IMG/VR virus record: IMGVR_UViG_3300035701_000031
Location: 1-61,433 of that record
From: a virus
Lineage: Duplodnaviria > Caudoviricetes
Direction: 5' to 3' (one strand)
Length of the DNA: 61,433 bases
The notes under the pieces were generated by a model, which made no database searches, was not told where the DNA came from, and saw only the letters and a program-made list of their open reading frames with translations. Made by a program: the position numbers and the translations under genes. Every line of letters begins with the position of its first letter. The stretch's first letter is position 1. Of this stretch, positions 11,443 to 49,961 are shown piece after piece.

Positions 11443-12201
11443 TTAGATTTTTAGGGTGCTTTCTTCAATTGGAATGGTGCGTGCATAGAGAGTTTTTTCT
11501 TTGACCATTTTTCGATTGTATTCATTCAATAAAGCCATTAATTCGTTACCAACCTTTTCTTCAGGAGTATCACGAAATTGAATTTCCAATAATTCATTCT
11601 TTTCATCTAATTTTTTCCATCTTCCTTCAACACCCCAACGAGTATAACCCTTTAAAAAATTGAAATATTTCATTTTATCTATTCTTACTGTAATTTCCAA
11701 TAATTCCAAATCTGTTTGCGCTTTCGTTGGGCGAAAGAGTAATTTATTAATTCTACTTTGAATTGCTTTTACTGTTTTTGGTGTTTTCTTGCCTTTTACC
11801 CTGACCCTTTTGCCCTTTTTAGCCTTCAAAAGCCCCTCTCCTAATTCTTCCCAGTGCTTTATTTGATTATAAAGTGGCGGATGTATGGTTTTTAATTCAC
11901 TTAATGTTAAATCCCCGATGGGTTCTCCTTCGTATTGTGATAAAAGTTCCGAGACCATCAGTGTATCTTCAATTGTTTTATCTTTTTTTCCTTTGCTTTC
12001 GACTATTTTTAATTTTTGGTAATACGCATTATCTTCTCGCAAATGGTCTTTAGCAATTTCAGTCGCAGCCTCTTTTATTGAAAGATTTTTTTCTTTGATT
12101 TTTTTGATTGTTTTAGCGTGCTCCATTTCCACTTTTGTGCCTGTTTTAATTCCTTTGCGGGCAAGGGCATGGCGGGCAGATTCTTGTCTCCATCCTTTCA
12201 T
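11443..12201 (-). CDS. ARH-motif protein with DUF5661-like segment
   Basis: Starts MKGWRQESARHALARKGIKT; EMEH...EIAKDHLRED..YY.KL segment. Confidence 0.7.
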   Translation of the reverse strand: MKGWRQESARHALARKGIKTGTKVEMEHAKTIKKIKEKNLSIKEAATEIAKDHLREDNAYYQKLKIVESKGKKDKTIEDTLMVSELLSQYEGEPIGDLTLSELKTIHPPLYNQIKHWEELGEGLLKAKKGKRVRVKGKKTPKTVKAIQSRINKLLFRPTKAQTDLELLEITVRIDKMKYFNFLKGYTRWGVEGRWKKLDEKNELLEIQFRDTPEEKVGNELMALLNEYNRKMVKEKTLYARTIPIEESTLKI

Positions 12202-12428
12202 TATTTTCCCCACCGCAAATTTGCAAAAACTTCCTTATAAGCCCAATAAAACGGGTCTCTTTCTGAAACATAGTGCTTCTTATTGTTTAGAGGTCTGCAA
12301 TCCATAAAATTTGGAAACCCATCTTTATCAGAATCGGCAAATGATTTCATTTTTGGCTTTATTTTTTTTAATTGCCCCCAAGACATATTTTTTAAAGCAA
12401 TTTTTCTTTTTTTCCTGCCTTTTGTCAT
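12201..12428 (-). CDS. small basic protein with a TSP3-like Ca-binding motif
   Basis: DSDKDGFPNFMDCRP. Confidence 0.6.
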   Translation of the reverse strand: MTKGRKKRKIALKNMSWGQLKKIKPKMKSFADSDKDGFPNFMDCRPLNNKKHYVSERDPFYWAYKEVFANLRWGK

Positions 12429-12434
12429 TTCAAT

Positions 12435-12734
12435 TCATCTTCTCTTTTTTTTCTTTAATGTAGAATATAATGAAGAAGCCATTCCTGTTCCCAGCCCTGC
12501 CATGCCCCCAAAAATCCCTCCAGCCCATGCTGTTCCAATTGTCTCGGCTAATGTTGGCTGTGGCATACCAAGAGCAAATGAAGTGGCAACACTGCCAGCT
12601 CCAGCAATTGTCCATCCTGTTAATTTGATTTGTGGGTTTTTAAAAAACTTTGAAACCTTGCCGAATCCATTAATCTTTCGTTTTGTCTTTGGAAGAAAGA
12701 AATTCTTGTTTGGAATAAATGAAATTTTAGTCAT
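12435..12734 (-). CDS. glycine-zipper membrane protein, paralog of 13551-13850
   Basis: Core GWT..GAG.VATSFALG.PQPTLA.TIGTAWAGGIFG nearly identical to 13551; basic termini. Confidence 0.75.
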   Translation of the reverse strand: MTKISFIPNKNFFLPKTKRKINGFGKVSKFFKNPQIKLTGWTIAGAGSVATSFALGMPQPTLAETIGTAWAGGIFGGMAGLGTGMASSLYSTLKKKKRR

Positions 12735-13135
12735 TTCTTTTTTCGCCCCGTTTTAATTCCTTTGCGGGCAAGACTATGCCTTGCGTTTTCCTGCACCCAA
12801 CCAGATTTGCCTTTTTTCTTCAGTAAATATTTTTGCTTGTATGGCTCAAATTCATTATTTTTGAATCGTTCCTCAAAATCTTCAACCATTTCAGCAGCAA
12901 CAGCAGTTTTGTCTTCTTTTGTAAGGCTAATTTTGCTGTCGGGTAGCTGCCTGTTATATTCCTTTATCGCCCTGTCAATTAGGTAGCCAAACAATTTTGG
13001 GGCAAGAGCTGGATTATAAATTCCCTTATATTTTTTTCTCGCAAGATTCTGGTTCATGTATTCTTGCTGCCTGTAAAGTGGCTCATCATTCATTATGAAC
13101 ATTCTGTATAATTCTCTTTGTTCCCAGTCGCCCAT
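12731..13135 (-). CDS. protein with C-terminal ARH motif
   Basis: Ends GWVQENARHSLARKGIKTGRKKK. Confidence 0.75.
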   Translation of the reverse strand: MGDWEQRELYRMFIMNDEPLYRQQEYMNQNLARKKYKGIYNPALAPKLFGYLIDRAIKEYNRQLPDSKISLTKEDKTAVAAEMVEDFEERFKNNEFEPYKQKYLLKKKGKSGWVQENARHSLARKGIKTGRKKK

Positions 13136-13141
13136 ATAAAA

Positions 13142-13303
13142 TCACTTTTTCTTTTTTTTCTTAATTCTCTTTTTCTTCGGTTTTTTCGGCTTGCCAAACC
13201 ACACCATGTGTTTAAAGGCTGCAACTCCCAATCCAATTCCAAGCCCAAGCCCAGCCATTTTTCCAACTGAACTGCCGAAATCTCCAATATCAACTGTTGT
13301 CAT
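13142..13303 (-). CDS. small glycine-zipper, Lys-tailed protein (53 aa)
   Basis: Manual translation MTTVDIGDFGSSVGKMAGLGLGIGLGVAAF...KKKKKK; ATGA overlap with 13300 ORF. Confidence 0.6.
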   Translation of the reverse strand: MTTVDIGDFGSSVGKMAGLGLGIGLGVAAFKHMVWFGKPKKPKKKRIKKKKKK

Positions 13304-48325: not shown

Positions 48326-48445
48326 TTATTGCACATCCCATTCCCATTTATGTATGAATAAATCGTTGAATAAAATTACGGCGATGCCTCTGTAAGTGAG
48401 CAGCGCAATTGCTGAAAAAAATATAATTTTTATTAATTCTTCCAT
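48326..48445 (-). CDS. small single-TM protein (39 aa)
   Basis: Manual translation MEELIKIIFFSAIALLTYRGIAVILFND...; SD GAGG. Confidence 0.45.
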   Translation of the reverse strand: MEELIKIIFFSAIALLTYRGIAVILFNDLFIHKWEWDVQ

Positions 48446-48483
48446 TTTTTATTTCCTCTTTTTTAATTGAAAAAATTTTAACT

Positions 48484-48499
48484 GCCCGTCAAAACGGGC
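48484..48499 (-). terminator. GC hairpin followed by T-tract after the split gene
   Basis: GCCCGT-TTTG-ACGGGC then a T6 run downstream on the minus strand. Confidence 0.55.
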
Positions 48500-48517
48500 T
48501 ATTTAACAGGTCTAACT

Positions 48518-48870
48518 TTAGACCCTTCTACCGAAAAGGTTTCCGAAGCCCCCAACGCCGTTTCTCAAAACTGCGAAGAGTGCGCCAAAGACCAAGACTA
48601 CAGCACCAAGCATGAGTCCCGAGTATCAAATAAAAAATCTTAACGAGATTTCTTAATTTGATTATACCGAACATCTGCCCGATGTTAGCAGCCTGCATAT
48701 TTACTCCCTGAACAATGCCATTGAATATTAAGTTCCAATTGCTCAATTTCGTTTTTAAAAAACGAATAAAGGGCAATCGAGAGAACATACCGCTAATGGC
48801 GTTGAACAGAGGGTCTATATTTTAACCCAAATCGGAATTGTTTAGAACTCCAATTTGTTAGGTCAGCCAT
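48518..48870 (-). CDS. putative major coat/virion membrane protein (73 aa) in four exons: 48870-48859, 48821-48781, 48729-48663, 48619-48518
   Basis: SD GGAGGT; spliced product MADLNIDPLFNAISGMFSIFNGIVQGVNMQAANIGQMFGIGLMLGAVVLVFGALFAVLRNGVGGFGNLFGRRV aligns gaplessly to 30684-30893; coat function is inferred. Confidence 0.88.
48620..48662 (-). other. BHB-type intron 3 (43 nt, frameshifting)
   Basis: UC GGUA UA^A UCAAAUUAAGAAAUCU-CGUUA-AGAUUUUUUAUUUGA UACU CG^G GA. Confidence 0.87.
48730..48780 (-). other. BHB-type intron 2 (51 nt, in frame)
   Basis: GGUAU GUUC UC^U CGAUUGC...GCAAUUG GAAC UU^A AUAUU: complete motif with 5-bp exon helix. Confidence 0.88.
48822..48858 (-). other. BHB-type intron 1 (37 nt, frameshifting)
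   Basis: GACC UA^A CAAAUUGGAGUU-CUAAAC-AAUUCCGAUUUG GGUU AA^A: 4-bp helix, 3-nt bulges, 12-bp intron stem; exon-exon helix weak. Confidence 0.85.
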
Positions 48871-48878
48871 CTGTCTTT

Positions 48879-49961
48879 TCAACCTCCCGTTACGTTTACT
48901 TTTTTTTGTAAAGAGGTAACCATAATTTCATCAAATTTTTTCTTTTTTCTATTTAAATAAAGGGTGTTTGCTCCTTTGTAAAGCCAATTTGCAATTTTTA
49001 TAGTTTGGGGTATCCCCTCATAATTTAATTCCCAGCAATTTTTATTTTTTTGTTTTGTTAAACTTCCTTTTTTTACGCCTTTAATTTTTGATAATTTTTC
49101 TTGAACTTTTTTAAGTAATTTTTTTGAACCAGTAAGTTTGAATGTGGCTCTGTTTTTTCCATTTCTTTTTTTGAAATATATGCAACCATCGCCATCAAAT
49201 AAACCTCGAATAAAATGATTATCGGCTTCTTCTGAAATGTTTGGATAGGCTGAACGAATTGTTTTTTTGGTAATATCAAACGGGCATATCTTTTGCAAAT
49301 CAGAATACATTTGTTTACTGTTTATTGTGGTCGAATATTCTATATTGGCATCTGGGCGTTTATATTTTGTTATATAATGCGTTGAACCAAGGATATTTTT
49401 AATTTTTTCAATTGGTTCTAATTCATTTTGGTCAAAACGAACACGATAACATTTCTTAATTGCACATCCATCTGCCATCCAAAACCCAAGAACATAGGCA
49501 CTTTTTGATGTAATTTTTGAAAAGAATTTTTCATTCACTTTATGATATTTTTGATGCGCATATTTTACATTGATGTTTTTTTCTTTAAGCCAATTTAAGA
49601 TAGTCTGTGGATTTAAATTATATTTTTGCCCCAATTCGCAACTATTTGAGCCTTTTTTATATTCATTTACAATTTTATTTTTCAATTTTAACGGAATAAT
49701 TGAATGGGTTTTTAAAAATGCTGAAGGTTTTTTTGATGTTTTTTGCCTTTTTAAAATGTTTTGAATTAAACAATGCGAGGCATTATATTTTCTACCTAAT
49801 TCCCAAGTGCTCAAACCTTTTTTTAAATATTGGCTAACTATTTGTTTTTCTTTCGAATCAGTAAATCGTCTTTTTCCTTTATATGTTCGACCTATTTTTC
49901 TCCCACTGCGCATCCCTCTCGCACTTAAGCTATGCCTCGCTGGTTCATTCTGCCAACTCAT
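48879..49961 (-). CDS. free-standing LAGLIDADG homing endonuclease with N-terminal ARH-like motif and HTH repeats
   Basis: AYVLGFWMADG and FIRGLFDGDG motifs; N-terminus SWQNEPARHSLSARGMRSG. Confidence 0.88.
   Translation of the reverse strand: MSWQNEPARHSLSARGMRSGRKIGRTYKGKRRFTDSKEKQIVSQYLKKGLSTWELGRKYNASHCLIQNILKRQKTSKKPSAFLKTHSIIPLKLKNKIVNEYKKGSNSCELGQKYNLNPQTILNWLKEKNINVKYAHQKYHKVNEKFFSKITSKSAYVLGFWMADGCAIKKCYRVRFDQNELEPIEKIKNILGSTHYITKYKRPDANIEYSTTINSKQMYSDLQKICPFDITKKTIRSAYPNISEEADNHFIRGLFDGDGCIYFKKRNGKNRATFKLTGSKKLLKKVQEKLSKIKGVKKGSLTKQKNKNCWELNYEGIPQTIKIANWLYKGANTLYLNRKKKKFDEIMVTSLQKKVNVTGG

Follow-up and report, generated by a model that had tools for sequence, protein, structure and literature searches.

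A near-invariant peptide module of about 24 residues on unrelated proteins of archaeal mobile elements, most likely a common address tag

Why do 14 mostly unrelated proteins encoded by a single viral contig carry the same short peptide? The DNA which raises this question (IMG/VR record IMGVR_UViG_3300035701_000031; hereafter the window) spans an entire entry in a collection of viral contigs and is a linear sequence of 61,433 bases with an estimated completeness of 36%. Its GC content is 31–41%, and the minus strand carries nearly all long open reading frames (ORFs, named here by their first coordinate). The peptide follows the consensus K-G-W-x-x-E-[S/P]-A-R-H-[S/A]-L-A-x-[K/R]-G-[I/V]-K-T-G-R-K-K, about 24 residues in all. 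It is an uncatalogued, self-contained peptide module of that size, and its most likely role is that of an address tag shared by all these proteins. Proteins that bear it are referred to as tagged, and the remainder of each protein as its cargo.

Exactly 14 copies of the motif are present in the window, every one on the minus strand (Table 1). A strict regular expression recovers 12 of them and a looser one all 14. We also built a profile from 140 motif segments and ran it, unfiltered, against all 1,767 six-frame open segments of at least 20 amino acids (aa) in the window. It gave 14 matches scoring 33.9–60.1 bits, separated by a clean gap from the next best segment (4.8 bits), and a search of the window's own collection record likewise returned 14 copies. 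Shuffling gave no instance of the pattern GWxxExxRHxL[AST] in 50 trials, against 12 in the window itself. In 12 proteins the motif is N-terminal, with its W at residue 4–8; in ORF 12731 it is C-terminal (W at residue 113 of 134), and in ORF 26853 it lies between two protein halves (W at residue 73 of 175), not closely preceded by a Met. The copies of ORFs 27377 and 48879 are divergent. A first-pass annotation of this DNA had listed 14 copies at these same ORFs, and regular expression and profile recover all of them, placed as it had described (N-terminal, C-terminal, internal or divergent).

The same annotation had held that the motif is conserved as protein and not as DNA. The codons agree with this: at conserved residues of the window copies, serine is encoded by both AGY and TCN, arginine by both CGN and AGR, and leucine by both CTN and TTR. 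Such changes of codon family at conserved positions show that selection acts on the protein. Over the 91 pairs of window copies there are 627 synonymous and 499 nonsynonymous codon differences, and over 18 codons the copies share on average 62.5% of their nucleotides and 69.5% of their amino acids. A logo of 550 unique segments reads K-G(99%)-W(100)-[KRH]-x-E(91)-[S77/P20]-A(70)-R(98)-H(100)-[S68/A27]-L(99)-A(94)-[A/R]-[K/R]-G(97)-[I70/V19]-K(65)-T(86)-G-r-k-k, percentages which are somewhat inflated, as the segments had been picked by the profile. The motif is followed by a low-information, Lys-rich stretch, and mean net charge is +6.2 over 28 residues (475 segments).

For a 34-residue segment supplied with 140 aligned segments, AlphaFold2 predicts a single 9-residue helix, E-S-A-R-H-S-L-A-R (residues 8–16), with glycines on both sides and then a Lys/Arg tail; mean pLDDT is 78.7, and 91 over residues 11–20. 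Read from the sequence, the S/P after E would suit a helix N-cap and the G after [K/R] a C-cap, and L and I could pack against W on the opposite helix face. Some cargos tagged in the standard way in the window have homologs with a second variant of the tag, KGWDKESLRHSxAKKFGKAPPYR, and the two variants share no more than G-W..E..RH..A.

As for the cargo, masking the motif in 515 non-identical tagged proteins left 304 BLAST groups, with 211 singletons. Within the window, ORFs 14626 and 25554 are mutual paralogs and the others did not group; the BLAST grouping of masked proteins thus bears out the earlier statement that the cargo is mostly unrelated. Median cargo length is 133 aa, the isoelectric point is bimodal, and a hydrophobic 19-mer occurs in 8 of the 515 proteins. 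When 150 tagged proteins were searched against Pfam, the families found were DUF5661 (7), DUF7417 (3), LAGLIDADG_3 (2), PaREP1 (2) and DUF6876 (1), none of which covers the motif. ORF 48879 matches LAGLIDADG_3 (E 1.1e-12), ORF 29359 matches DUF7447 (E 8.2e-26) and ORF 11443 matches DUF5661 (E 9.1e-6) with 26.4 bits against a cut-off of 27. Hence, among the cargo labels first proposed, LAGLIDADG stands and DUF5661 falls just below the cut-off, while "ParB-like" (ORF 23550) and "KOW" (ORF 26853), which had been assigned by eye, find no Pfam family at E ≤ 0.1. The tag is N-terminal on three kinds of homing endonuclease, of the LAGLIDADG type in the window and in locus L048 and of the NUMOD3 type in locus L051. 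Zinc-ribbon patterns are not enriched in the cargo (15 of 515 tagged proteins, 14 of 339 control ORFs).

A match between the motif and a characterized family, which the first-pass annotation had named as telling against its own proposal of a docking or sorting tag, was looked for across Pfam, PDB sequences, NCBIfam and PHROGs and did not appear. No Pfam family covers the motif in the 14 window proteins, and with the 140 bare segments no family was matched by more than two of them at E ≤ 10. NCBIfam returned two single chance-level matches for the 140 segments; in PHROGs the best family was matched by 7 of 140, with a best E of 0.084. Two profiles run against PDB sequences gave 0 matches at E ≤ 10, and tblastn against deposited phage and archaeal-virus genomes gave none at E ≤ 10 either. 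Foldseek with the 34-residue model found nothing at E ≤ 0.001, and the ESM Atlas neighbors of the tagged protein 28790 all have TM scores below 0.5 and are uninformative. Literature searches with the motif strings and with the cargo families DUF5661, DUF7447, DUF7417 and DUF6876 listed no relevant paper.

Particular candidates were rejected as well. The local string SLARKG is common to the motif and to the NUMOD3 repeats of the window's endonucleases; kinship with NUMOD3 (Pfam PF07460) reached a probability of 0.9% over 6 columns when hhalign was run against 10 window NUMOD3 repeats, and the family was matched by 0 of 140 segments at E ≤ 10 and by 0 of 14 window proteins at E ≤ 0.1. The AT-hook (Pfam PF02178) was matched by one segment of 140 (E 0.016), and the 550-segment consensus has no GRP core. 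KGG stress repeats, ribosomal eS30, eL29 and eL37 and zinc-finger linkers, to all of which a likeness had been noted by eye, were found neither in Pfam (140 segments, E ≤ 10) nor in PDB (E ≤ 10).

The profile search of metagenomes that the first-pass annotation had proposed reveals a motif far more widespread than one window. Among 1.84 billion cluster representatives, 1,588 proteins match at E ≤ 0.001, 28 of them at E ≤ 1e-10, each match standing for a cluster at 50% identity. A word-seeded search of 5.8 billion proteins yielded at least 290 proteins at E ≤ 0.001 among 8,000 candidates scored; those with a source name are all annotated as "hypothetical protein", and in most matches Pfam finds no domain. 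Scanning of metagenomes gave 236 pattern matches, 104 of which were confirmed, and 78 of the confirmed loci were taken into the analysis. In total, 415 copies were collected from 84 sources (518 kb), each source holding at least one copy by profile. N-terminal copies number 305 (~73%), internal ones 85 and C-terminal ones 17, eight being ambiguous. As C-terminal copies mostly stop directly after GRKK(K), we place the module boundary there. Some single proteins bear two copies, including one copy per end, and in loci L035 (9496-9585) and L037 (also P0125) the tag alone makes up a 30-aa ORF, which lies ~650 nucleotides (nt) downstream of a homolog of the window's 40007 protein. Another 25 proteins of 20–81 aa match the profile, many of them on very short contigs and possibly truncated. 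With N-terminal, C-terminal, internal, doubled and solo copies at hand, the position independence claimed from the window alone is upheld. In locus L084, two membrane proteins (10868-11437 and 11707-12219) have a C-terminal tag right after a hydrophobic segment, so that the tag would sit on one side of the membrane.

The longest unbroken array, in a 111-kb metagenome relative (loci L041 and L071), extends over 18.4 kb: 37 genes in succession, all on one strand and with a median spacing of 524 nt, have the motif at their start. The 31 kb of this contig that were examined hold 38 copies, a lower bound for the contig, and its 40 cargos were sorted into 36 groups at E < 0.01. Its 37-gene array has mostly the E-P-A-R-H form and the window the E-S-A-R-H form, which suggests, as far as sequence can tell, lineage-specific flavors of the tag. 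At another locus, 21 copies are packed into 10.8 kb.

In cellular genomes the motif is rare. A scan of one genome per prokaryote species gave 48 pattern stretches. Only five proved genuine, and every one of them lies on a contig from one of three archaeal metagenome-assembled genomes (MAGs). Two of these MAGs hold 19 and 22 copies, clustered on few, mostly small, window-like contigs; in the third, assigned to Thermoplasmata, a single copy lies in an island that also encodes an integrase and a methyltransferase. Among genomes sampled from the classes of those MAGs, the motif was present in 3 of 301 and in 1 of 215. The one genome among these beyond the three MAGs, also of the Thermoplasmata class, has a single copy on a 176-kb contig, beside a gene read by eye as RusA-like. 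As the motif is rare in cellular genomes and its copies there are always in mobile-element-like contexts, it is part of the archaeal mobilome rather than a housekeeping domain. In IMG/VR, a peptide-pattern scan gave 15 stretches, none confirmed, and a DNA-pattern scan gave a single stretch, L087, which the profile did not confirm.

We looked for genes that accompany the tagged arrays. A syntenic core common to the window and several loci consists of a giant protein (43134-48347), the two-transmembrane protein 40007, proteins 38937 and 38245, and a P-loop ATPase. The order giant protein, 40007, 38937, 38245, ATPase, tagged array is the same in the window and in L084; the combined locus L013+L051 holds homologs of core genes, with the array downstream of the ATPase. 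In all seven loci with the ATPase family, tagged genes lie downstream of it on the same strand, the first one 276–2,040 nt after the ATPase, and in six of the seven no tagged gene lies upstream. The true families (ATPase, 40007, giant protein) occur in only 5–8 of 87 sources, most sources being short. No non-tagged family is common to all tag-bearing loci, and the largest one (31 loci) is an antisense reading of the motif.

No core protein could be assigned to a family or fold. For the ATPase, Pfam finds only an intein, a relaxed Pfam search with an intein-less homolog finds nothing, and PDB sequences give 0 matches; a word search returned three relatives only, and the AlphaFold2 model (mean pLDDT 50.1) is unusable. 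The 40007 protein has no match in Pfam or PHROGs, and no model or usable match in the ESM Atlas. The insertion in the ATPase Walker A is a mini-intein, which the homologs in L084, P0206 and P0207 lack. Between the ATPase and the tagged array lies a gene (30684-31826) for a 380-aa protein with six 117-nt (39-aa) repeats and a hydrophobic C-terminus.

A promoter-like 25-mer, CCAAAATGTTTTTATATAAGAAAGG, resembling a B recognition element (BRE) with TATA box, occurs five times on the minus strand of the window and not at all in 100 shuffles. It is contained in a conserved intergenic block of ~76 nt, and each copy stands just upstream of a gene block (Table 1). Judging from spacing and strand, the tagged blocks would form operons. 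A weaker sixth copy is present near 59919-59964.

What, then, would the motif do? A mostly N-terminal, near-invariant peptide on dozens of array-encoded, unrelated proteins is the signature of an address signal. Short N-terminal signals common to diverse proteins are typically sorting signals, and the position pattern found here is that of a sorting signal. Archaeal mobile elements put this one module on hundreds of unrelated small proteins. If the predicted helix reached as far back as W, one face would be shared by W (i), E (i+3), R/H (i+6/7) and A (i+10), and we infer that this face docks onto one common partner, by which all tagged proteins would reach the same place. Extreme invariance is expected in such a case, as many paralogs must all fit one partner. 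The most likely destination would be the element's own particle, if it makes particles at all, or its nucleoprotein during assembly, so that varied accessory proteins could be loaded there and delivered along with the genome. The module of P-loop ATPase, membrane protein and giant protein beside the tagged arrays is the candidate machinery. The ~73% share of N-terminal copies, the 37-gene run, the ATPase-then-tag order in seven of seven loci and the shared promoter-like element lean to loading or delivery. On account of the linkage to the ATPase/membrane module and of the shared promoter class, we tentatively put forward a docking tag for loading into, or delivery with, the element's own particle, a role that we would not yet call probable.

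Several points weigh against this role. No binding partner was found. The ATPase-linked loci were obtained through the tag, for which reason only direction and distance of the tagged genes are informative. No capsid, portal, terminase or protease family was recognized among ~70 window ORFs searched with Pfam and 10 searched with PHROGs, and because of this the word "virus" rests on the label of the collection. Single tags occur in mobile-element-like islands without detectable similarity to the ATPase module; the P-loop protein of the L002 island, the one compared, shows no similarity to the window-type ATPase. A receptor belonging to the window's module cannot explain the island copies. The tag is also present on homing endonucleases, and modules added to such enzymes are normally DNA-binding. 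Finally, the basic charge, the double copies and the solo 30-aa ORF fit a nucleic-acid hook equally well.

Such a hook would be autonomous: the helix, with its E/R/H/A face, and its Lys/Arg tail would bind DNA or RNA and tether the cargo to nucleic acid of the element or the host, much as NUMOD or AT-hook modules do, although the motif is a member of neither. Besides the features just named, the endonuclease fusions, the very small matching proteins and the SLARKG string are in its favor, and occurrence in otherwise unrelated mobile-element-like contexts fits a universal ligand. However, the motif has no significant similarity to a known nucleic-acid-binding family, as the NUMOD3 and AT_hook comparisons show, and none of the PDB chains, ribosomal and DNA-binding proteins included, gave a match at E ≤ 10; the cargo is not enriched in zinc-ribbon patterns, and an invariant Trp, 91% Glu, the N-terminal bias and 37 consecutive unrelated tagged genes would be unusual for a generic DNA hook. 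We consider a hook possible, if rather unlikely, and it can merge with the loading tag if the tag binds the genome under packaging. A loading or docking tag and a minimal DNA-binding helix are also the two roles that the first-pass annotation had put forward, and they stay the two likeliest in our view. The tag is nearly invariant in elements associated with MAGs of two or more archaeal classes and in element types unrelated to one another, which fits a partner conserved in the host better than one encoded by the element. The tag could then dock onto one conserved archaeal machine, for example of replication, transcription, translation or proteolysis, and the arrays would be a takeover or anti-defence repertoire; long arrays of small, fast-diverging, unrelated genes are indeed typical of viral accessory or takeover regions. 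This is nevertheless quite unlikely in our view: no candidate host protein was found, the hosts being uncultured, the conserved order from ATPase to array is left unexplained, and the absence of the motif from housekeeping genes gives no sign of host-motif mimicry.

Two further explanations are much less probable. The tags could be a handle on which an enzyme acts, either a protease (processing or degron) or a peptide modifier, the candidate being the ATP-grasp protein of the R2K clade encoded at 5452-6210, beside an RlaP nucleotidyltransferase. The R2K ATP-grasp clade is predicted to modify proteins, and invariant polar E, R and H on a short peptide would suit an enzyme recognition site. What makes us think this highly improbable is that internal, C-terminal and double copies poorly fit a cleaved leader and that no protease family was found in the window; the other 86 loci contain no ATP-grasp homolog, which counts for little as they are mostly short. 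Least credible of all is that the copies have no common function and are left over from a gene-start cassette (ribosome-binding site, start codon and first 20 codons) spread by duplication or recombination. Some copies, for example those in a 103-nt repeat (14977-15079 and 30427-30529, 83% identical), do resemble each other beyond the motif, into upstream non-coding DNA, and the N-terminal bias is strong; yet the amino acids are invariant while the codons are scrambled, switches of codon family included, the same invariants recur across 1,588 clusters and in C-terminal and internal copies, and a passive remnant would decay.

Returning to the address tag, one wider form of it can be proposed, though we hold it to be unlikely. 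The tag might mark the substrates of a protein-delivery system, as yet undescribed, in archaeal viruses or virus-like elements. The module of ATPase, membrane protein and giant protein would recognize the W-E-RH-A face and load dozens of unrelated effectors, as many as 37 from a single array, into a particle or transfer apparatus, to be injected with the DNA into the next host; lone tags in unrelated integrated elements would then be hitch-hikers on the same machine.

Table 1. Copies of the motif and associated features, by position in the window unless a locus is given
Feature	Coordinates	Strand	Context
Motif copy, N-terminal	12145..12195	-	ORF 11443-12213, 256 aa, DUF5661-like cargo
Motif copy, C-terminal	12752..12802	-	ORF 12731-13135, 134 aa; ends ...GIKTGRKKK, then stop codon
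Motif copy, N-terminal	14561..14611	-	ORF 14036-14620, 194 aa
Motif copy, N-terminal	14995..15045	-	ORF 14626-15054, 142 aa, paralog of 25554
Motif copy, N-terminal	24108..24158	-	ORF 23550-24167, 205 aa
Motif copy, N-terminal	24536..24586	-	ORF 24164-24598, 144 aa
Motif copy, N-terminal	25902..25952	-	ORF 25554-25961, 135 aa
Motif copy, internal	27117..27167	-	ORF 26853-27380, residues 72-88 of 175
Divergent motif copy GWFREYPEHSLTGKGIS, N-terminal	28355..28405	-	ORF 27377-28423, 348 aa, acidic; 33.9 bits
Motif copy, N-terminal	28726..28776	-	ORF 28420-28785, 121 aa
Motif copy, N-terminal	29063..29113	-	ORF 28790-29122, 110 aa
Motif copy, N-terminal	30445..30495	-	ORF 29359-30504, 381 aa, C-terminal DUF7447; first gene after promoter-like element
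Motif copy (…LAAKKIKTG), N-terminal	42131..42181	-	ORF 41783-42190, 135 aa; first gene after promoter-like element; heads block containing conserved 40007 protein
Divergent motif copy SWQNEPARHSLSARGMRS, N-terminal	49908..49958	-	ORF 48879-49964, 361 aa, helix-turn-helix + LAGLIDADG endonuclease; first gene after promoter-like element
Second-variant tag	L084 13715-15217; also L085, L011, L012, L016
Conserved P-loop ATPase, intein inside Walker A	32542..34053	-	Syntenic core
Promoter-like 25-mer	15309..15333	-	Upstream of block with motif genes 14626, 14036, 12731, 11443
Promoter-like 25-mer	30630..30654	-	126 nt upstream of motif gene 29359; heads run of eight motif genes, 30504 to 23550
Promoter-like 25-mer	31807-31831	-	Heads gene 30684
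Promoter-like 25-mer	42225..42249	-	Directly upstream of motif gene 41783; heads 41783-40007 block
Promoter-like 25-mer, 2 mismatches	49993..50017	-	Directly upstream of 48879; heads 48879-giant-protein block

Other features of the window deserve mention. Two paralogous 99-aa glycine-zipper membrane proteins (12435-12734 and 13551-13850; 227 nt at 84%) are interleaved with tagged genes. A TnpB/OrfB_IS605-type gene with a Cas12f1-like TNB domain (35870-37063; E 1.2e-20), 80% identical to the copy in L001, lies within the conserved module. The window also encodes six NUMOD3-repeat endonuclease paralogs, five on the minus strand (3-728, 3203-3964, 10413-11372, 34057-34803 and 42444-42785) and one on the plus strand (60144-61109). 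Two facing NUMOD3 genes give rise to a 216-nt inverted similarity (84%) between the contig ends (9-224 and 60771-60986), which is no clean terminal inverted repeat. An ERCC3/RAD25-like helicase (20056-22644) contains an intein with a LAGLIDADG domain. An auxiliary metabolic block at 16647-19593, comprising a DeoC/LacD aldolase, a class I methyltransferase, an HpcH/HpaI aldolase and a SIS-domain protein, is 98–100% identical in L007. The R2K-clade ATP-grasp gene (R2K_3, E 7.7e-9) overlaps the RlaP nucleotidyltransferase gene (6198-6917, E 1.1e-18), and the two could be a protein- or RNA-modifying pair.

Almost nothing is known of how viruses of uncultured sediment archaea organize their accessory proteins, and here a single tag marks 14 proteins in the window, 38 or more in a relative and, in public data, 1,588 clusters at 50% identity. 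It provides a sequence handle on a whole protein class of poorly known archaeal viruses, one that can be directly tested with a synthetic peptide. Should it be an address tag, it would allow the "delivered" or "recruited" proteome of a virus group to be catalogued from metagenomes alone, and would serve for receptor fishing and for targeting foreign proteins in archaeal systems; should it be a nucleic-acid hook, it would be a new minimal binding module. The motif deserves a family entry under either function.

Known systems resemble the tag in part. NUMOD3 and AT-hook modules are likewise very short, basic, position-independent and repeatable, and occur on homing endonucleases, but have no counterpart of the invariant G-W...E...R-H core. 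The MIX and related motifs of type VI effectors, the phytoplasma SVM signal and the PE/PPE domains are conserved N-terminal elements on clustered unrelated proteins that are read by one machine for export or delivery. They are bacterial, longer or hydrophobic, and each is tied to an identified secretion system, whereas the tag has only ~24 residues, is hydrophilic and basic, and its machine is known here only as a candidate.

The capsid-targeting sequence (CTS) of phage T4 is a short N-terminal address on unrelated proteins, by which these are loaded into the particle and delivered with the DNA; the likeness lies in a short N-terminal peptide on otherwise unrelated proteins of one virus. The two have no sequence similarity, and the hosts of the tag are archaea. 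Conservation of the CTS is weak, and it stands only at the N-terminus, where the prohead protease cuts it off, whereas the tag is near-invariant and strongly basic and is found at other positions too, doubled or alone (305 of the 415 copies are N-terminal, 85 internal and 17 C-terminal); no protease family was recognized among the window ORFs scanned, in a record estimated to be 36% complete. Encapsulation peptides of microcompartments and cargo-loading peptides of encapsulins have ~10–20 residues at either terminus and a linker, and dock onto one shell protein, those of microcompartments being helical. The tag is similarly short, often terminal and set off from diverse cargo, and a short terminal helix with a linker to the cargo is predicted for it too. 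No shell family of bacterial microcompartments or encapsulins was found among the ORFs scanned in the window, which is incomplete. In encapsulation peptides it is mainly the pattern that is conserved, in the tag each residue of the core, and a genome here has 14 to 38 or more tagged genes, far above the count in encapsulation-peptide systems.

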